DNA of 64,000 nucleotides, taken from assembly GCF_051535215.1 (NCBI RefSeq), contig NZ_JBPPLY010000009.1:67417-131416 (forward strand), read 5' to 3'. The position numbers and the translations under genes were made by a program. Source of the stretch: Nitrobacter sp. (GTDB lineage: Bacteria > Pseudomonadota > Alphaproteobacteria > Rhizobiales > Xanthobacteraceae). The notes beneath the pieces are model-generated. The model ran no database searches. It was given only the letters and a program-made list of their open reading frames with translations, and was not told the origin of the DNA. How positions within the stretch are numbered: position 1 is the first letter of the stretch; the number at the start of each line of letters is the position of its first letter. Below are positions 28,861 through 38,662 of this stretch, one piece after another.

Positions 28861-28954
28861 CCGCTTCTGATGGAATCAGAAGCGGAGCCCTATGTTTTGA
28901 TTTGGCGCGTTTTCTTTACGCGAACCGGTAGCCACTTCGCTTGAAAACGCTTTA
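28861..28954 (+). repeat. RIME-like element, family 1, with left CTTCTGAT/ATCAGAAG hairpin
   Basis: CCGCTTCTGATGGAATCAGAAGCGG followed by ...TTTTCTTTACGCGAACCGGTAGCCACTTCGCTTGAAAACGCT. Confidence 0.8.
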
Positions 28955-28984
28955 GGCGAGGGGCGCGCTCAGTCGTTTCCGGCA

Positions 28985-30000: not shown

Positions 30001-31230
30001 ATGCCGCGTCGGGCCAATCGCGTGGACAGTCACTATCGCTGGGTGATCGTCGCGGCTGGCGGCCTTCTGGGTTGCGTCGCGATCGGCGCCATGTTCTCGC
30101 TGCCTGTGTTCCTGCGGCCGATGTCGCAGGAAACAGGGTGGTCCGTCACCGGCATATCCACGACCATGACCATCGGTTTCCTCGCGATGGCGGTCGCCAG
30201 CATGGTGTGGGGCACTCTCTCCGACCGGTTCGGCCCGCGCCCGGTGGTGCTCGCGGGCTCGGTCGTGCTGGCGGCGAGCCTGGCGCTCGCCAGCCGGGCG
30301 GAATCGCTGATCGCGTTTCAGTTTCAGTTCGGCCTGTTGGTCGGTGCATCGACCGCCGCTATCCTCGCGCCCATGATGGCCTGCGTGACCGGCTGGTTCG
30401 ATACGCAGCGCGGTCTTGCCGTTTCGCTGGTCTCTGCTGGCATGGGCATGGCGCCGATGACCATGGCGCCGCTCGCGGCCTGGCTGATCTCGATCCACGA
30501 CTGGCGGAGTTCGATGTTGATCATCGCCGCTCTTGTCGCAGGGCTGATGATCCCGGCGGCGCTGCTGGTGCGCCGGCCGCCGGCGCTGGAGGGCGGAGGG
30601 GCGGCGATGACTACGGACGAGCCGCAATCAGACATGACGGTCAGGCAGGCGGTTCGTTCGCCGCAGTTCATCATCCTGATGCTGGCGAACTTCTTCTGCT
30701 GTGCCACCCATTCCGGTCCGATCTTCCACACCGTGAGCTATGCGGTGACCTGCGGAATACCGATGATCGCCGCGGTGTCGATCTACAGCGTCGAGGGTTT
30801 CTCCGGCATGCTCGGCCGCATCGGGTTCGGCGTCGCCGGAGACCGGTTCGGCGCCCAGCGCGTTCTGGTGATCGGACTGCTGGCGCAGGCGTTTGGCGTG
30901 CTCGCCTATGCTTTCGTCAGCGATCTCGATGGCTTCTATGCGGTGGCGCTTGTGGTCGGCTTCCTCTATGCCGGTACGATGCCGCTTTACGCCGTGATTA
31001 TCCGCGAGAATTTCCCGCTGCGGATGATGGGTACGATCATCGGCGGCACGGCGATGGCAGGCAGCCTCGGAATGTCGATCGGCCCGCTGCTGGGCGGGCT
31101 GGTCTATGACCATTTCGGCAGCTACGCACCGCTGTATGTCTGTTCGTGGGGCATGGGGCTCGTGGCCATGCTGATCCTGATGGCGTTCAGGCCGTTTCCG
31201 GGAAGGCAGCCGGAAATCGCTGTGGCGTAA
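30001..31230 (+). CDS. MFS transporter (OFA/MCT-like)
   Basis: About 12 TM segments; MFS loop motifs 'GTLSDRFGPR' and 'GVAGDRFGAQR'; 'WFDTQRGLAVSL'. Confidence 0.9.
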   Translation: MPRRANRVDSHYRWVIVAAGGLLGCVAIGAMFSLPVFLRPMSQETGWSVTGISTTMTIGFLAMAVASMVWGTLSDRFGPRPVVLAGSVVLAASLALASRAESLIAFQFQFGLLVGASTAAILAPMMACVTGWFDTQRGLAVSLVSAGMGMAPMTMAPLAAWLISIHDWRSSMLIIAALVAGLMIPAALLVRRPPALEGGGAAMTTDEPQSDMTVRQAVRSPQFIILMLANFFCCATHSGPIFHTVSYAVTCGIPMIAAVSIYSVEGFSGMLGRIGFGVAGDRFGAQRVLVIGLLAQAFGVLAYAFVSDLDGFYAVALVVGFLYAGTMPLYAVIIRENFPLRMMGTIIGGTAMAGSLGMSIGPLLGGLVYDHFGSYAPLYVCSWGMGLVAMLILMAFRPFPGRQPEIAVA

Positions 31231-31318
31231 GTCCGGTACGCACGCCGATGTCAGCCCGAGGGTGCTCGCGCGAAAACGCGATAGCGTTCGGACCAGCGCG
31301 GAAACCCTCTCATTGAAA

Positions 31319-32506
31319 TCAATCGGCCGGTGGCGTCACCAGCGGCTGCACGGTTTTCAGCATCGCCACCAACTGACTTTGCTTGCGGGCGCCGGTCTTG
31401 CGGAAGATGCGTTCGAGATATGTGCGCGCGGTTTTGGTCGTCACGCCGTTCTTGCTGGCGCACTCCGTAAGCGTCAGTCCGCTGGCGAGGTCCGCCGCCA
31501 CCCGCGTCTCCGTCGGGGTCAGATCGAACAGGGCATTGAGAAGACTGGCGGAGGGCACCAGCGCGGTAGGGGTGATCGGAGTGGCGATAATAAGCGTATC
31601 GGCACCGCCGAAGATGTCGTGCGCGGCCCGCCGCAGCGGCAGCAGGTGAACGACGAACGCGGCCTTGCCGCCGATAGCCGGCACTGGAATCGAGCCGACC
31701 GCCGTTTCGTTCTGCATCCGCGTCACCGCCTCCTGAAACAGCCGGTTGGCGTCGCGGTCGGCGATCGCCAGTCCGCCATGGGCAACCGGCAGAAGCGCCG
31801 CGTCCATCCGTTCGAGGTAGGAATTCGCCGCTATCACCCGTCCGTTGGTTGAAAGCACCGCGGCCGGAAGTCCCATCAGTTCAAGCGCGGATGTGGTCGC
31901 CTCGGCCCGCTCGAGATGCAGCCGCCCGGCGACCAGACTGGCGCGGGCCAGATGCGGCCGCAATGCATCGAGTTGCGCGATCTCCTTCTGGCGGTACGTC
32001 CCGTCCTTCATCCATTTCTGAAACACGAAGGTGGCAAGCTCGCCGGTCGGCATGGCGATGGCCGAGCAGAGATGGGCGCCGATCCCGAACTCGCGCAACA
32101 TGACGCGTGCCGGATCGCGGGCGATTTCCTCCGCGCTCATGTAGTCGTCGACCGGAATGAAGCTCGCAGGCTGGAGAGCGCAGGTCTTCTGCACACTGTC
32201 GGAGAATTTCCACATGTCGCCCGTGATGAACTTGTCGAACAAGGCTTTCATGTTCTCCAGCGTCACGCCGCGCGGCGGAGTGGTTTCGTTGAAGAAAAAC
32301 AGTTGTGCGCTGGCGGAGGCGGACAGGTCGCAGGCCTCCTGAAGCACGGAATACCAGCGAATCGGCACGAATGCTGCCTCGTAGATCAGGTCGACAAGGT
32401 CGATCATGGCTGGCGGCGGCTCAATGGGTGCGGAGAGGGCGGAGCAACCTCCGCCGCGGACAGAGGCCACTATCCGATGGCTGCCGATAATCTCAAGTTG
32501 GCTCAT
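31319..32506 (-). CDS. LuxR-type HTH regulator with N-terminal GAF/PAS-like sensing region
   Basis: C-terminal 'FDLTPTETRVAADLASGLTLTECA...TARTYLERIFRKTGARKQSQLV'; N-terminal 'LVDLIYEAAF.P..W'. Start could be 32407. Confidence 0.85.
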   Translation of the reverse strand: MSQLEIIGSHRIVASVRGGGCSALSAPIEPPPAMIDLVDLIYEAAFVPIRWYSVLQEACDLSASASAQLFFFNETTPPRGVTLENMKALFDKFITGDMWKFSDSVQKTCALQPASFIPVDDYMSAEEIARDPARVMLREFGIGAHLCSAIAMPTGELATFVFQKWMKDGTYRQKEIAQLDALRPHLARASLVAGRLHLERAEATTSALELMGLPAAVLSTNGRVIAANSYLERMDAALLPVAHGGLAIADRDANRLFQEAVTRMQNETAVGSIPVPAIGGKAAFVVHLLPLRRAAHDIFGGADTLIIATPITPTALVPSASLLNALFDLTPTETRVAADLASGLTLTECASKNGVTTKTARTYLERIFRKTGARKQSQLVAMLKTVQPLVTPPAD

Positions 32507-32775
32507 TGCCGCACGTCCTTGTCTCGCGGACTCGATATCTTTCGGGGTCACCGATGATCACAAGCTTCTCTGTATGGCGCTCATACGGGCGACGCGGCAG
32601 AGGGTCGTCAGCGCGCGCGGCAGCGATGCGGAGCCTGTTGTGCTCCAGTCACAGCAGCGAAAAACCGGATTCGAACCATTGGGATATTTGCCGATCAGTC
32701 GTCATTTGACGACTGGCCGCAGCCGGCCGTACGGCGGCAATCTGCTGCACGGGAGCAGAAAAGTGAGGAATAATC

Positions 32776-33318
32776 ATGTCCATTTTATTGAAAGCATTTC
32801 GGCTGGCGGCAATTTCAGGATTTCTGGCGGGATCGATCATTGCGACAGCCCCGTCGGCTTCAGCCTTCAGCCTCAACCCCGTTAAGGCCGCAAAAAGCAT
32901 CGGGAAGGTGGCCGGGGGTGCCGTAAAGGGCGTCGGGAAGGTGGCCGGGGATGCCGCAAAGGGCGTCGGGAAGGCTGCAGGCGGAGTAGCCAAGGGCGTC
33001 GGCAAAGTAGCAGGCGGCGCGGTGAAAGTTGTCGGGAACGTCGCCGCCCACACAAGCGGAAAGATTGCGATGGGTGCAATCCGCGCCGGCCAGAAGACCG
33101 TCAAGGTCACCGGCAGAGCCGTCGTTTCCGGGGGCAAGACTTTGGGGAAAGGTGTCAAGACGGCAGCGAACAGCGCCAAGAAGCCACTCGGGGTGATTGG
33201 GCGGAACGCATTGCTGGCGACGCCCGCTGCTCCGGCGATCATGGCCAAACGGGCGGCCGATACTGCCAGACATGGTCCGCGTGCCAGCAGTTTCATGCCG
33301 ACGCTGATCAGGAGATAG
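32776..33318 (+). CDS. Exported, highly cationic Gly/Ala/Val/Lys protein with 11-residue tandem repeats (unknown function)
   Basis: RBS GAGGAA, Sec signal ending ASA, repeats of K(G/S)VGKVAGGA(V/A); about 27 K/R against 2 D and no E in the mature part. Confidence 0.75.
   Translation: MSILLKAFRLAAISGFLAGSIIATAPSASAFSLNPVKAAKSIGKVAGGAVKGVGKVAGDAAKGVGKAAGGVAKGVGKVAGGAVKVVGNVAAHTSGKIAMGAIRAGQKTVKVTGRAVVSGGKTLGKGVKTAANSAKKPLGVIGRNALLATPAAPAIMAKRAADTARHGPRASSFMPTLIRR
32893..33057 (+). repeat. Five degenerate 33-bp coding tandem repeats
   Basis: Units start at 32893, 32926, 32959, 32992 and 33025 (aagggcgtcgggaaggtggccggg...). Confidence 0.85.
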
Positions 33319-33373
33319 AGACATAAATCGACGTCTCATTATTTCATTTCTGGATCGAATCCGGAGAAGTCCC

Positions 33374-33967
33374 ATGAAGAGAAACGTCAAACGGACCGTT
33401 GCGGTCATGGTGATGGGCTTGTTCGGAGCCTCCCTTGCCGCCACGACGGATTTCGCTGCAGCGCAGAACCGCATCAATGCGGGGCCTGTCGCGCAAATGC
33501 ACGGCGGCAAGGCGTTTCTGAAGCCGGCGACCAGGTTGCAAGGCATGCGGTCGCAGCTCCAGCGTAATGAGGCTGCCAAAATGCAGCCTCTGACGCCGGG
33601 GCTAGACAAAACGCGCGCAAGCGCGGCTACGCAGAACAGGCAGGCGGTGAATCCGCAACTCAACAAACTTCAATCGATGCAGCAGCAGCTTAACAGCAAT
33701 GCCAACAAGGCGCTGAACCCGCAGCCTCTGCCGCCGGGGCCAGACAAAACGCGCGCAAGCGCGGCTGCGCAGAACAGGCAGGCGGTGAATTCGCAACTCA
33801 ACAAACTTCAATCGACGCAGCAGCAGCTCAACGGCAATGCATTCAACAGCAACGAAAAGAGGCTTCAACAGGCGCAGAGTCGCGCCGATAAAACAAGATC
33901 AATGATCGGCAAGCTTCAATCATCGCAGCAGCAGATCAACAGAAATATCATCGGTAACATGCGCTGA
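33374..33967 (+). CDS. Exported Gln/Asn-rich repeat protein (unknown function)
   Basis: RBS GGAGAA, Sec signal ending AAA; about 29% Q+N in the mature part; repeats 'DKTR...KLQSxQQQ(L/I)NxN' x3; contains 'LNPQPLPPG'. Confidence 0.78.
   Translation: MKRNVKRTVAVMVMGLFGASLAATTDFAAAQNRINAGPVAQMHGGKAFLKPATRLQGMRSQLQRNEAAKMQPLTPGLDKTRASAATQNRQAVNPQLNKLQSMQQQLNSNANKALNPQPLPPGPDKTRASAAAQNRQAVNSQLNKLQSTQQQLNGNAFNSNEKRLQQAQSRADKTRSMIGKLQSSQQQINRNIIGNMR
33583..33843 (+). repeat. 138-bp near-identical tandem duplication (46 aa) in the Q/N-rich gene
   Basis: 'gcagcctctg(a/c)cgccggggc(t/c)agacaaaacgcgcgcaagcgcggct' starts at 33583 and again at 33721. Confidence 0.9.
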
Positions 33968-34010
33968 ACTGAGAGTTAGCGCGCGACTGATTGATCAGAT
34001 GGGGTGGGGA

Positions 34011-36092
34011 ATGGATCGTCGGGAAGCATGCGCCGGCCGCGGGTTGGCGCGGTCGGCTTGGTGTGCGTCGGTTGCTGTTTGGGGCGTGTTTTGGCTGGCG
34101 CAGTTGGATTCAGTGGCGCAGTCGGCCGATATGGCGCTGAAGGCACCTCCGGCTGAAGAGGCCCAGAGCTATCCAGCCTATGGCTGGGCGGGGTGTTATG
34201 TCGGCGCCGGGATGGGGGTCGCGTCTTCGCGTTCCGATTGGGTTTATCGCAACAGCAATCCCTATACCTCCACCGGCAATCTTGATCCGCAGTTGATTGA
34301 CGGTGCCGATTTCAAGGATCGCCGCGGCATCGTCGGCGCACAGGTCGGCTGCAATACGATGGTCTCGGGACCATGGCTTGTCGGCGCCGAACTGTCCTGG
34401 ATGAGCAATCCGCTTCGCCAGGAGAAGAACAACAACTTCGATCCGGCGCAGGGCCAGGCCTTTGTCCCGCTGGAAACCTTCGTCACGACCGACATTCAAT
34501 CCGTCTTCAACCTGACGGCGCGGCTCGGCTATGCCGTCAACGACAACTGGCTGCTGTATATGAAGGGCGGTTACGCCCTTGGCCAGATCCAGACTTCGGG
34601 ATACCTCACGCCGAATTTCGGGATTTTCGACTGGAGCGACACGCGCTGGCACAACGGCTGGACGGTCGGGGCGGGTCTCGAATACCGGCTCTTTCGCAAT
34701 ATCACGGTCGGCGCCGAATACGCCTACACGCGGTTCGAGGGGAAGGATCATGTCGGCCGGCACGAGGTTATCGACACCACCCTCAATGTGCCGGCCAACC
34801 CGGTCGTTCACGGCGTGAGCGCCGACATGCACACGGTGATGGCGCGGGTCAATTTCGGCCTGAGCGATCCTGTCGGCACGCTGGAAAGCCCGCAGCAGGA
34901 TCCGGGCCTTCCGGGTACGTGGTCGGCCTTCATGAGTACCGGTCCGCACTATTCGGCCTGGACCGGCACGCGCGGCGTGAACGTGTTCGCGCCCGATCGC
35001 GGCAAGGGCTATCAGGTTTACACGCCGACGCTGATCGGCATCGACTACGATGATTCCTCCTCAATGAAACTCGAAACTCGTTTCAAGGGCGGTCATGTCT
35101 ACGCGCGGCACGAAACGGCGGGACAGCAGGCGACCTACAACGGTCCGATCGATTCCGAGGCCTCGGTTACTGCGACGCTCCAGAACTTCGAAACGTTTCA
35201 GCCGACGTTTGGCGTCGCCCTCAATATCCCGACCGGCACGTCGTATCTCCCGAACAACCAGCGTTTCGCGCGCATGGATCCCGACCTCGTCGACATCGGA
35301 AGTTATGGCGCCGGCTTCAACGTCAATCCGACGGCGGGGCTGGTTTTCGGCCTGAATGAAAATACCGCACTGTCGGTTTCGGGCGGCTATGCCTGGCAGG
35401 GCAGTTTCATGAGGGAGGGAATAGATCCGTCCGCCGCGACGGGGTTCGGCGTTTTCAACCTCAAGAACCAGATCGATCCGGGCAGCGTCTTTACAGCCAA
35501 CGCCAATCTGAAGACGCAGATCGACAACCTCGCACTTGAGGGATCGTTTGCGTATATGTCGGAAACGGTCGTGAAGGTCGATGGCGTCGCCAACGGCAAG
35601 GCCGGCGATCGTTATGTGAGCAACCTCGTCGCGCAATATCAGTTCGATCCGCAATGGGCGCTGGTGATGAGCGTGTCGCATACATTCCAGGAAAAGAACC
35701 AGATCCCCGGGATCTTCGCTCCTCTTGTGGTGGAGCGGCGCAATTCCAACAGCCATCTCGTGATCGGCTCGGTCGAGCCGTCCTTTCTGATCACCGAACA
35801 GCTGAAGCTCGCGGCGAATTACAGCTTCCTCTACCGTTCGGATAATTTCTACGATCAGATCAATGCTGAATTCATTCCGGCAAAAACCAAGCACTCGGTT
35901 GGTGGGAGCGCGACCTATACGGTCTCGCCGCACGCCTCGATCGAGTTGAAGGGAGGTTATTCCTGGGTGCGTCAGGACACCGGCGCGTTCCTCGAAACCT
36001 CGACCGTTCCGGCGGAAGTACGAGAATATCTTCCGCCGCAGCTAAGTTACCGCGCCTGGACGACCGCGCTGACAGCGAACCTGCAATTCTGA
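34011..36092 (+). CDS. Two-domain outer-membrane protein: Omp25/RopB-like barrel fused to a second beta-barrel
   Basis: Signal then 'ADMALKAPP', 'WAGCYVGAG', 'GAQVGCN', 'ARLGYA...LLYMKGG', 'GWTVGAGLEY', 'TVMARVNF'; Pro-rich linker; about 390 aa of amphipathic strands ending 'ALTANLQF'. Start could be 33999. Confidence 0.8.
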   Translation: MDRREACAGRGLARSAWCASVAVWGVFWLAQLDSVAQSADMALKAPPAEEAQSYPAYGWAGCYVGAGMGVASSRSDWVYRNSNPYTSTGNLDPQLIDGADFKDRRGIVGAQVGCNTMVSGPWLVGAELSWMSNPLRQEKNNNFDPAQGQAFVPLETFVTTDIQSVFNLTARLGYAVNDNWLLYMKGGYALGQIQTSGYLTPNFGIFDWSDTRWHNGWTVGAGLEYRLFRNITVGAEYAYTRFEGKDHVGRHEVIDTTLNVPANPVVHGVSADMHTVMARVNFGLSDPVGTLESPQQDPGLPGTWSAFMSTGPHYSAWTGTRGVNVFAPDRGKGYQVYTPTLIGIDYDDSSSMKLETRFKGGHVYARHETAGQQATYNGPIDSEASVTATLQNFETFQPTFGVALNIPTGTSYLPNNQRFARMDPDLVDIGSYGAGFNVNPTAGLVFGLNENTALSVSGGYAWQGSFMREGIDPSAATGFGVFNLKNQIDPGSVFTANANLKTQIDNLALEGSFAYMSETVVKVDGVANGKAGDRYVSNLVAQYQFDPQWALVMSVSHTFQEKNQIPGIFAPLVVERRNSNSHLVIGSVEPSFLITEQLKLAANYSFLYRSDNFYDQINAEFIPAKTKHSVGGSATYTVSPHASIELKGGYSWVRQDTGAFLETSTVPAEVREYLPPQLSYRAWTTALTANLQF

Positions 36093-36103
36093 GAGGATAG
36101 AAA

Positions 36104-36472
36104 ATGCGCTACGCGATCGCTATCACCTCGGCGGCATGCGGGGGACTGATGTGGGCGTTCACTGCAGGCGCCTTTGCGAAACCCGCACAACCTGCGCCCG
36201 CCTCGCCCCAAAGGGCCGTCCAGGCGCCAAAACCGCCTCAGCGCTGCCTGCGCGCACTCGATGGCAGCTGTACCAAACTGGCGGTCGTCGAATCCGTGCG
36301 GCGGCGTGCGATAATTTTCTCGACGTTGCGCGTGTCCTATTACGGCACCCCGGCGGGAACGATACCGGGAGGCATCGGGATCGAGCGTTTCTTCCGCGAT
36401 GATCCCATCCTGTTCGGGCTGCCGACGGTCGTTTACGGTCCGGGACCCTGCTGTATCCTGCGAACCAGATGA
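36104..36472 (+). CDS. Small exported protein with Pro-rich linker and four Cys in the mature part (unknown function)
   Basis: RBS GAGGA 11 nt after the OMP stop; Sec signal ending AFA; 'CLRALDGSC' and 'PCCIL'. Confidence 0.65.
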   Translation: MRYAIAITSAACGGLMWAFTAGAFAKPAQPAPASPQRAVQAPKPPQRCLRALDGSCTKLAVVESVRRRAIIFSTLRVSYYGTPAGTIPGGIGIERFFRDDPILFGLPTVVYGPGPCCILRTR

Positions 36473-36514
36473 TCACGCGGAGAAAAGCCCTCTGCTTTCA
36501 TCCTGTCCGACGGT

Positions 36515-37525
36515 TCAGTGCGACCGCGCAAGGCAGAACGCTACGACCTGCTCCAGCGCGCTCTTCATCGGCGACGGCGGAAACAGCGCCAGCGCATCGA
36601 CCGCCATCGCGCCGTAGTGCTGGGCGCGGTTGAGGGTATCCTCGAGCGCGCGATGCTTGGTCATCAATCCGATGGCGTGATTGAGATCGTTGTCGCCGAT
36701 CTCGCCTTCCTCGAGCGCTCGCACCCAGAATTCGCGCTCGGTATCGTTGCCGCGGCGGAACGCCAGCACCACCGGCAGCGTGATCTTGCCCTCGCGGAAA
36801 TCGTCGCCGACGTTCTTGCCGAGCTTTGCCGACTTGCCTCCGTAATCGAGCACGTCGTCGACGAGCTGGAAGGCGATCCCGAGGTTCATGCCGAAGGAGG
36901 CCGCCGCCGTCTCTTCGGCTTTCGGACGTCCGCCAAGTACCGGGCCCACTTCGCAGGCGGCGGCGAACAGCTCGGCGGTCTTGCCACGAATGACCGCGAG
37001 GTATTCATCTTCGGTGGTGGCGGTGTTCTTCGCCGCCGCGAGCTGCATGACCTCGCCTTCGGCAATGGTGGCGGCAGCCGATGACAGGATGTCGAGCGCG
37101 CGCAGCGAGCCGACTTCGACCATCATGCGAAACGCCTGCCCGAGCAGGAAGTCGCCGACCAGAACGCTGGCTTCGTTGCCCCACACCATGCGCGCCGACA
37201 GCTTGCCGCGGCGCAGTTCGCTCTCGTCGACCACGTCGTCGTGGAGCAGGGTCGCGGTGTGCATGAATTCCACGGAGGCTGCGAGCTTGACGTGACCCTC
37301 GCCGGAATAGCCGGCGAGGTGGGCCATCGCCAGCGTCAGCATCGGGCGCAGCCGTTTGCCGCCGGACGAGATCAGGTGGTTCGCGACCTCCGGGATCATC
37401 GTGACGTCCGATCCGGTCCGCGACAGGATGGTGGCGTTGACGCGTTCCATGTCGGCGGCGACGAGCTCGACGAGCTGGTCAACGGAGCCTGTCGAGTGGC
37501 TTTCGAATGGGACAATGACCGCCAA
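36515..37525 (-). CDS. ispB: Polyprenyl (octaprenyl/decaprenyl) diphosphate synthase
   Basis: 'SSGGKRLRPML', FARM 'LLHDDVVDES.LRRG', SARM 'FQLVDDVLDY', 'GDDFREGKITLP'. TTG start inferred. Confidence 0.93.
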   Translation of the reverse strand: MAVIVPFESHSTGSVDQLVELVAADMERVNATILSRTGSDVTMIPEVANHLISSGGKRLRPMLTLAMAHLAGYSGEGHVKLAASVEFMHTATLLHDDVVDESELRRGKLSARMVWGNEASVLVGDFLLGQAFRMMVEVGSLRALDILSSAAATIAEGEVMQLAAAKNTATTEDEYLAVIRGKTAELFAAACEVGPVLGGRPKAEETAAASFGMNLGIAFQLVDDVLDYGGKSAKLGKNVGDDFREGKITLPVVLAFRRGNDTEREFWVRALEEGEIGDNDLNHAIGLMTKHRALEDTLNRAQHYGAMAVDALALFPPSPMKSALEQVVAFCLARSH

Positions 37526-37679
37526 GCTGGGGATCTCCGAATTACTCTGTCCGCGCCATTTGCGGCTGTTACAATAGAAAGTGGCGGTTGGCGCGGCAAG
37601 CGCAGGTAGTTGTTGACATGTAGCGGTTGACATGGGCCACAGGGCCGTGAAGCTGCGCGAGGCGCGGGAGAATGCGGGA

Positions 37680-37916
37680 TTGCGCGAACTGGTCCGAACC
37701 AACGACGTGGTGCTGGTGTCGGCGGTCAGCGCGCTGCTGGATGGCGCCGACCTCCATTACCTGGTGCTGGACCAGAACATGAGCGTGATCGAGGGGTCGC
37801 TCGGCATCCTGCCGCGCCGCATTCTGGTGCATGACGAGGACAACGCCGAGGCACGCCGGCTTCTCGTCGAAGCGGGGCTGGGCCACGAATTGCGGCCCGA
37901 CGATGCCGGACGATGA
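37680..37916 (+). CDS. DUF2007-type small protein
   Basis: 'RELVRTNDVVLVSAV.ALL', 'DQNMSVIEGSLGILPRRILV'; the usual neighbour of ispB and the methyltransferase in Rhizobiales. Confidence 0.8.
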   Translation: MRELVRTNDVVLVSAVSALLDGADLHYLVLDQNMSVIEGSLGILPRRILVHDEDNAEARRLLVEAGLGHELRPDDAGR

Positions 37917-38662
37917 CCGGCGCACGATCTGAGGATGCATTTCTTGGCGGTCGGTTGCGGCTGTACCAGCCCTTGTCCGGCCATCGCGCCGGCCACGACG
38001 CGATGCTTCTGGCCGCTGCGACGCCGGGCAAAAGCGGCGATCATGTCGTTGATTTCGGAGCGGGCGTCGGCGCGGCCGGGCTCGCGGTGGCGACGCGCCT
38101 TGCCGGCATCGATCTGACGCTGGTCGAACGCGACGAAATCCTCGCCGATCTGGCGCGCCGCAACGCGGTTCACAACGCGATCGCGGCGCGGGTCTGCACC
38201 CTCGATATCGCAGCCGGAGCGGAGGCTTTCGCAGGCGCCGGTCTCGGTCCCGACAGCGCCGACGTGGTGCTGATGAATCCTCCGTTCAACGATTCGGAGC
38301 GGCATCGGCCATCGCCAGATGAGAACCGTCGCGCGGCCCATGTCGCGGAGCCCGTCACGCTCGACAGTTGGGTCCATGCGGCTCGTCGGGTGCTGAAATC
38401 CGGCGGTGTGCTCAGTCTGATCTGGCGCAGCGACGGTCTGGCCGAGGTGTTGGCCGTGCTCGGTCGCGGCTTCGGCGGTGTCGCGATTCGGCCTGTTCAT
38501 CCGGATGCCGGCAAGCCTGCGATCCGCATCCTGGTTCGTGCTGTCAAAGGGAGCCGCGCGCCGCTCAGGCTTTGTCCGGGTTTGATGCTCGCCGACGAGA
38601 CGGGCCTGCCGAGCAAGGAGAGCCGCGAGATTTTGGCCGGCGCGCAGGTCTTGGCGATGTGA
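37913..38662 (+). CDS. SAM-dependent methyltransferase (TrmN6/YfiC-like)
   Basis: 'FLGGRLRLYQP..GHRAGHDAMLLAA', 'VDFGAGVGAAG', 'VLMNPPF'. Confidence 0.88.
   Translation: MTGARSEDAFLGGRLRLYQPLSGHRAGHDAMLLAAATPGKSGDHVVDFGAGVGAAGLAVATRLAGIDLTLVERDEILADLARRNAVHNAIAARVCTLDIAAGAEAFAGAGLGPDSADVVLMNPPFNDSERHRPSPDENRRAAHVAEPVTLDSWVHAARRVLKSGGVLSLIWRSDGLAEVLAVLGRGFGGVAIRPVHPDAGKPAIRILVRAVKGSRAPLRLCPGLMLADETGLPSKESREILAGAQVLAM

Follow-up and report, generated by a model that had tools for sequence, protein, structure and literature searches.

Here we describe a four-gene operon (positions 32776-36472) in a 64,000-nucleotide stretch of Nitrobacter DNA (the window; contig NZ_JBPPLY010000009.1), for which the closest loci are found in Nitrobacter metagenome-assembled genomes. 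The last two genes of the operon, which encode a double-barrel outer-membrane protein (ORF3, the barrel) and a small cysteine-containing protein (ORF4), form a conserved two-gene core that is accompanied by interchangeable Sec-exported partners, here ORF1 and ORF2, and by a local regulator. We propose, with a probability of about 0.45, that the operon is a dedicated Sec-dependent outer-membrane export or surface-display module. In window coordinates its features are:

32776..33318, plus strand: ORF1, 180 amino acids (aa), predicted to be exported as a 150-aa mature protein with an isoelectric point (pI) of 12 and K/G/A/V 11-mer repeats.
33374..33967, plus strand: ORF2, 197 aa, predicted to be exported, Q/N-rich, pI 12, with 46-aa repeats joined by ALNPQPLPPGPDK.
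34011..36092 (alternative ATG at 33999), plus strand: ORF3, 693 aa, two barrels, ending in ...ANLQF.
34191..34859, plus strand: N-terminal OmpA/Omp25-like 8-stranded barrel of ORF3 (residues 61-283), from Pfam and the AlphaFold2 (AF2) model.
34917..36089, plus strand: C-terminal barrel of ORF3 with about 16-18 strands (residues 303-693), from the AF2 model and invariant columns.
36104..36472, plus strand: ORF4, 122 aa with 4 Cys, predicted to be exported as a mature protein of about 97 aa with pI 10.3.
31319..32506 (extendable to a GTG at 32551), minus strand: LuxR-family regulator with a GerE helix-turn-helix, divergent from the operon.
32696..32715, no strand assigned: perfect 20-bp palindrome CAGTCGTCA-TT-TGACGACTG, 60-80 nucleotides (nt) upstream of ORF1.

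An initial annotation, made from the letters of the window, had described four co-oriented genes with short gaps, and this description stands: ORF1 to ORF4 all lie on the plus strand, separated by 55, 43 and 11 nt. The ribosome-binding sites that it had recognised on three of the genes correspond to GAGGA/GGAGA motifs 7-8 nt 5' of ORF1, ORF2 and ORF4, while ORF3 is preceded by a G-rich stretch only. Read by eye, the four N-termini each resemble a Sec signal peptide, in keeping with the export signals that it had assigned to every product. Three of the four proteins belong to no Pfam or NCBIfam family, and neither the list of open reading frames nor these two databases revealed an usher, secretin, ATPase, CsgG or C39 peptidase in the block, just as had been stated.

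The conservation of the barrel-ORF4 pair was examined in about 25 barrel loci from genomes and metagenomes. ORF4 was located directly 3' of the barrel in every related locus (about 25), including L031, the only one of them seen to have a barrel without the N-terminal domain. In all 18 loci with enough flanking sequence, the pair is adjoined by genes for secreted partners. Often there are two of them, co-oriented with the barrel and 5' of it, and a regulator of the LuxR or AraC type is close by. Genes for inner-membrane, ATPase or cytoplasmic proteins show no conserved linkage to the pair in the loci examined. The partners fall into two unrelated classes. The first comprises small hyper-cationic repeat proteins of pI 10.5-12 and is found in the window, L013, L014, L039, L016/L041 and L031. 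ORF1-like proteins together with Q-rich proteins are encoded in the window, L013, L014 and L039, where the ORF1 homologues occupy the same position, and a further ORF1 homologue lies close to the barrel in L041. The L016/L041 locus has LNPQPLPPG-repeat proteins and another repeat protein, with its ORF1-like gene beside a regulator 4 kb off; LNPQPLPPG-repeat proteins are encoded 5' of the barrel in both L016 and L031. Near the barrel we also noted tandem triplets of small exported paralogues of 88-104 aa (L016/L041 10945-11631 and L031 4070-5002), those of L016/L041 being strongly basic and ending in ...AKP[VLA]RR.

The second class, present in 12 loci, is a secreted family of 800-1085 aa with about 30 Cys in C-x6-9-C paired repeats, a hydrophobic centre, a P/G/S-rich tail and a C-terminus with a conserved YGGCxxCG and a basic end. 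The family has no Pfam or PDB match. Its members include:

Cys-repeat proteins adjoining the barrel-ORF4 pair: L040 3478-6663 and 7102-10359; L017 2810-5869; L028 9529-12492; and others.

Two tandem copies of the Cys-repeat protein occur in a complete genome of 8.2 Mb. The complete genome G156 has the gene order AraC, AraC, big1, big2, barrel, ORF4, which mirrors the order LuxR, ORF1, ORF2, barrel, ORF4 of the window. The initial annotation had proposed a neighbourhood analysis to see if repeat-rich exported genes consistently lie upstream of the barrel homologues. ORF4 is always 3' and secreted partners are adjacent; the repeat-rich kind is not universal, and about half of the loci have a Cys-repeat protein. 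The barrel tree has an unresolved backbone, on which partner class changes at least twice and with which one origin of each class is compatible.

Among 41 genomes, ORF1, ORF2, the barrel and ORF4 co-occur exactly, and the large Cys-repeat partner was absent from all 41 relatives searched. The barrel and ORF4 were found in 4 of 23 Nitrobacter genomes, three of which also have ORF1 and ORF2; the contig with the fourth copy is cut within the barrel gene. ORF4 is present in only 5 of 401 genomes of the bacterial family. The fixed position of ORF4 3' of the barrel, the secreted partners that adjoin the pair and the exact co-occurrence of the four genes support a conserved system.

The proposal that ORF3 has two barrels, made in the initial annotation, was borne out by a Pfam match, an AF2 model and the existence of homologues with the C-terminal barrel only. 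OMP_b-brl (PF13505) scores 62.3 bits over residues 51-243 (cutoff 28.7; E=8.4e-17). The AF2 model, built from a 110-sequence alignment, has a pLDDT of 87 and a pTM of 0.79, and places 8 strands in residues 61-283 and about 16-18 in residues 303-692, with a 19-residue linker of lower confidence between them; judged from this model, both barrels would be closed. Stand-alone homologues of the C-terminal barrel, about 390-500 aa in length, exist as P0101-P0110. In total there are more than 140 ORF3 homologues, those outside Nitrobacter being 45-76% identical. PDB sequence and profile searches gave weak OmpA matches for the N-terminal barrel and none for the C-terminal barrel or the large partner protein. 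In several Nitrobacter genomes, other open frames of about 650-730 aa share only the N-terminal 8-stranded barrel of ORF3 (for example G005:C33:11769, G009:C3:2180086 and G014:C1:467357) and may represent other multi-barrel families in the genus.

Within the ORF3 family, conservation is highest in a loop of 30 residues that connects strands 5 and 6 of the large barrel and contains a short helix (residues 405-443), with the motif NxPTG..YLP..QRFxRxDPDL..G..G.G.N.NPT.G. In the model this loop appears to be positioned like the porin constriction loop L3. Matches of the large barrel to known families are slight: BBP2 (PF07642) scores marginally at residues 499-662 (28.1 bits against a cutoff of 26.2), and the relation to COG4313 suggested in the initial annotation survives only in a weak form, in that 3 of 11 C-barrel-only homologues match PF13557 (Phenol_MetA_deg, best E=7.9e-7) and the window ORF3 does not. 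The 8-stranded barrel has a near-invariant Cys pair, C62 (34194-34196) and C114 (34350-34352), which is unusual among outer-membrane barrels. The presence of Cys in the barrel, in ORF4 and in the large partners suggests that disulfide chemistry may matter in the system.

ORF4 itself has no Pfam or NCBIfam match and belongs to a tiny family, a profile search recovering 43 clusters among 1.84 billion representative proteins, nearly all of 100-150 aa. An alignment of 34 sequences shows a Pro-rich N-terminus, an invariant CLRALDGSC hairpin, a YGTPxG...F.RxF.D...GLP core and a C-terminus with CC or CxxC followed by R-T/S-K; the homologues in this alignment have no lipobox Cys. One metagenomic member, P0155, has an N-terminal FecR fusion (PF04773, E=3e-8) that could be a gene-calling fusion, and it hints that the ORF4 domain may work in the periplasm at an outer-membrane barrel. 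Two long matches to the ORF4 profile, P0190 and P0191, were rejected: they are unrelated repeat proteins, and the likeness is confined to a short FF.D..GLPT-like motif.

The repeats described for ORF1 and ORF2 were recovered. ORF1 has a 33-nt (11-aa) repeat in 3.6 copies, and its mature form contains 27 K+R against 2 D+E (pI 12.0). Along the repeat segment the hydrophobic moment peaks sharply at 98.2 degrees, with no maximum at 160-180 degrees; this pattern points to an 11/3 amphipathic helix and away from beta structure. The codon-position test of ORF1 was ambiguous, an antisense frame sharing its third codon positions. Since the 260-aa homologue in L039 keeps the plus frame open while its antisense frames are broken, we regard the plus frame as settled.

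ORF2, whose 167 mature residues include 28 Q and 20 N (pI 12.0), has a 138-nt (46-aa) repeat in 1.9 copies with a 94% match, together with a degenerate third unit, so that the three imperfect repeats of the initial annotation are upheld. Only 7 ORF2 homologues were found in total (116-218 aa). The repeat number differs among strains, and environmental transcripts include one form without a 129-nt unit (window 33576-33706) and another with 38 extra nt at window 33854, coding ...KALNPQPLPP.... No literature was found on the LNPQPLPP motif, and nothing relevant in the literature on the Nitrobacter outer membrane and biofilm. ORF2 evolves faster than its neighbours, at 56-81% identity compared with 94-98% for the barrel. 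Such divergence and repeat variation are often seen in surface-exposed proteins and would fit an exposed position of ORF2.

Transcription of the operon was assessed with contigs from four sludge metatranscriptomes that are 95-99% identical to the window; the contigs are unstranded and may include some DNA. They cover the ORF1 area at 32959-33576, bridge ORF1 and ORF2 at 33156-33576, bridge ORF2 and the barrel at 33709-34082 and 33914-34390, and extend to 35807. The RNA word depth of the operon is similar to that of ispB, and the LuxR gene is almost uncovered. The co-transcription assumed in the initial annotation is therefore supported, not proven, for ORF1, ORF2 and ORF3, the junctions of which are bridged.

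The divergent gene is a LuxR-type regulator, as had been claimed, with a GerE match at residues 344-397 (26 bits against a cutoff of 23.5). The GAF/PAS part of that claim stays putative: the N-terminal region of about 330 aa has no recognised domain and no GAF/PAS match at E<=1 in Pfam or NCBIfam. A 45% identical homologue of the regulator is divergent from the barrel in L028, and a weaker LuxR match adjoins the ORF1-like gene in L016/L041. The 20-bp palindrome is identical in the G021 and G015 copies and lies within a leader of about 165 nt that is kept in all three Nitrobacter copies, making it a candidate operator. A consensus scan for promoters and terminators gave nothing usefully above shuffled expectation, and no Rfam family was found in 31000-38000.

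We therefore favour an export or surface-display module that would operate as follows. ORF1, ORF2, ORF3 and ORF4 would all cross the inner membrane via Sec. ORF3 would then sit in the outer membrane as an OmpA-like 8-stranded and a porin-sized barrel of about 16-18 strands in one chain, with ORF4 as a small, disulfide-bonded, obligatory partner that would most probably dock, from the periplasmic side, on or in the large barrel. ORF3 and ORF4 would jointly move strongly cationic, largely unfolded or helical partners to the surface or the medium, or anchor them there, these partners being ORF1 and ORF2 here and the Cys-repeat proteins of about 1000 aa in other lineages. At the surface, the partners may bind anionic material such as lipopolysaccharide (LPS), exopolymers or the membranes of other cells. 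The divergent LuxR regulator would switch the operon on, possibly at the 20-bp palindrome.

Several observations weigh against this proposal. Translocation of the partners is something that we infer, and it is from adjacency alone that the two unrelated classes would be regarded as cargo. The constriction-like loop between strands 5 and 6 would suit small solutes better than proteins, and ORF3 lacks periplasmic docking domains such as POTRA or TPR. Confidence in the AF2 model of ORF4 is low (pLDDT 57.6), and no RNA contig was found over ORF4 in the four sludge metatranscriptomes. Finally, when the Foldseek comparison suggested by the initial annotation was run with the whole ORF3 model against the PDB, it returned only generic large barrels (MtrB, TonB-dependent receptors, FadL) with TM scores of 0.25-0.45; since the query has two domains, this whole-model search is uninformative.

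A different explanation is that ORF3 is a substrate-specific uptake channel in which the large barrel is porin-like, the 8-stranded barrel an anchor and ORF4 a gating or binding partner, the secreted neighbours having separate roles. The porin-sized barrel, the conserved L3-like loop with its short helix, the weak Pfam similarity to BBP2, Porin_2 and Phenol_MetA_deg, and the frequent presence nearby of substrate-uptake genes such as ABC transporters, though these are not conserved, would all be in line with such a channel. However, inner-membrane transporters and catabolic genes are not conserved beside the barrel-ORF4 pair, where only secreted proteins and regulators are, and such a channel would leave unexplained why ORF1 and ORF2 so strictly co-occur and are co-transcribed with it; we consider it unlikely. 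An envelope-stabilising or tethering module is improbable to a like degree. ORF1 and ORF2 would in that case stay in the periplasm or at the inner leaflet of the outer membrane, as cationic amphipathic or coiled-coil proteins binding anionic lipids, LPS precursors or peptidoglycan, with the double barrel and ORF4 as an anchor like OmpA, Lpp or Pal. The pI of about 12 would suit this, the 98-degree moment of the 11-mer repeats is typical of amphipathic helices that bind lipids, the N-terminal barrel resembles OmpA/Omp25 and all of the components are envelope proteins. Yet Pfam detects no peptidoglycan-binding domain (OmpA_C, LysM) in the operon or the large partner proteins, a rare, accessory and patchy module (5 of 401 genomes) would be unusual for envelope architecture, and an exposed location would better suit ORF2, which evolves fast and varies in repeat number.

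The fibre or amyloid analogy drawn in the initial annotation fared worse. It would have ORF2, with or without ORF1, polymerise on the surface after export through the barrel, as in curli and Fap, and the layout, in which a LuxR-family regulator diverges from two subunit-like genes that are followed by those for a barrel and a small accessory protein, as well as the Q/N-rich ORF2 with its three imperfect repeats would agree with this. Against it, ORF1 and ORF2 are extremely basic (pI 12) with a helical periodicity, there is no homology to CsgA or other Curlin_rpt proteins, FapB/C, FapF, CsgG, CsgE or CsgF and no C39 peptidase, and roughly every second locus has, in place of the repeat proteins, unrelated Cys-rich proteins of about 1000 aa. 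Fibre formation is therefore quite improbable. Least probable of all, and largely refuted, is a chance adjacency of unrelated small open reading frames beside an outer-membrane protein gene. While ORF1 and ORF2 are of low complexity and an antisense frame shares the third codon positions of ORF1, gene order and co-occurrence are kept across diverged genomes, the L039 homologue has the ORF1 frame open and the antisense broken, and RNA contigs span the junctions.

Outer-membrane proteins of the multi-barrel kind have been described as a class in a survey of 186 families (Solan et al. 2021, PMC8346858). It distinguishes 34 architectures, an 8-strand barrel being part of 27 of them, and its most frequent theme joins an 8-stranded barrel to one of a different size. 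The best-known member, GfcD, binds the small periplasmic partners GfcB and GfcC (PMC11494523, PMC8592465). With at least two barrels in one chain and a short linker, as in GfcD/YjbH, ORF3 belongs to this class. GfcD/YjbH has 12-13 strands and a middle domain, whereas ORF3 has 8 and about 16-18 strands. The gfcABCDE and yjbEFGH operons likewise begin with a gene for a small low-complexity exported protein (GfcA/YjbE). The operon described here differs from Gfc/Yjb in having no polysaccharide genes, and its proteins gave no match at E<=1 to the YjbH/GfcD, GfcB/YjbF or GfcC/YjbG families in Pfam and NCBIfam.

Curli and Fap, like the multi-barrel GfcD, are precedents for a dedicated barrel with small accessory proteins and Sec-exported cargo. 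The present operon resembles curli and Fap in its Sec-exported subunits, dedicated outer-membrane channel, small accessory protein and lack of an ATPase, and curli also in that the regulator is likewise divergent and of the LuxR family (GerE). The channels are different, however, CsgG being a lipoprotein nonamer and FapF a trimer, whereas ORF3 is a monomer-sized double barrel and not a lipoprotein. Furthermore, the partners here are strongly cationic, predicted to be helical and interchangeable with Cys-rich giants. In Pfam and NCBIfam the four operon proteins had no match at E<=1 to the Fap families (FapF, FapB/C, FapD C39 peptidase) and no match to the curli components Curlin_rpt, CsgG, CsgE and CsgF. 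The likeness to COG4313/PF13557 and BBP2 consists of weak, marginal C-barrel scores, and COG4313 barrels are 12-stranded, whereas the C-terminal barrel of ORF3 is larger (about 390 aa) and is distinguished by a family-specific conserved loop and by ORF4 as its obligatory partner. Two-partner secretion (T5bSS) and Slam/T11SS are similar in that a single barrel is dedicated to adjacent Sec-exported cargo, but Pfam found no POTRA, TPR or two-partner secretion (TPS) domain in ORF1-4 or the large partners, and no T5bSS/T11SS family match. As judged by sequence comparison, the likeness to Fap, curli, Gfc/Yjb and TPS is one of layout only.

The initial annotation had suggested an undescribed system. 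This holds in that no match to Fap, curli, Gfc/Yjb or two-partner secretion was found, and falls short in that two-barrel proteins are an already published class (PMC8346858). What is already known, then, is the multi-barrel protein and the design of a barrel with a small accessory protein and Sec cargo; apparently undescribed are this particular module and three or four of the protein families in it. A bolder formulation, which we regard as doubtful, is that the barrel and ORF4 represent a previously unrecognised Sec-dependent secretion or surface-assembly pathway of the outer membrane in Alphaproteobacteria, with interchangeable cargo (hyper-cationic repeat proteins in Nitrobacter, Cys-repeat proteins of about 1000 aa in Bradyrhizobium-like lineages) and no component in common with secretion types I-XI, curli or Fap.

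As previously annotated, the operon is flanked by a MarR/MFS module and ispB; the whole left side proved variable among Nitrobacter genomes. Where the operon is missing, as in six Nitrobacter genomes, the 3' end of ispB is the exact point at which homology to the window sets in. In G015 (L014 8724-12585; window 36473-36517), ORF4 is followed 3' by mobile-element genes and not by ispB, the element having an integrase (Phage_integrase with Arm-DNA-bind_3), an HTH_17 gene and a Prim-Pol/DUF5906 gene. Since homology starts at ispB and G015 has this element, we regard the operon as accessory DNA in a plasticity zone, and the junction between ORF4 and ispB appears to behave as a hotspot of integration or plasticity. 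Every Nitrobacter genome searched contains dozens of copies (91-98% identical) of a separate element of about 55 nt, located at 28900-28960 in the window, which looks like an intergenic repeat of the repetitive extragenic palindromic (REP) or miniature inverted-repeat transposable element (MITE) type.

If the export or surface-display proposal is correct, the double barrel and the small Cys protein would be a minimal two-component route across the outer membrane, and multi-barrel outer-membrane proteins, a class almost without assigned functions, would gain a testable role. It would also provide a context for four unannotated families, namely the ORF1-like proteins, the LNPQPLPPG-repeat proteins, ORF4 and the Cys-repeat giants. 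Should ORF3 instead be a porin with accessory proteins, it would still be a well-delimited new outer-membrane family with an obligatory partner. Among Nitrobacter strains the operon is variable, and it is transcribed in activated sludge, where hyper-cationic surface proteins could affect flocculation, biofilm cohesion and competition in wastewater.

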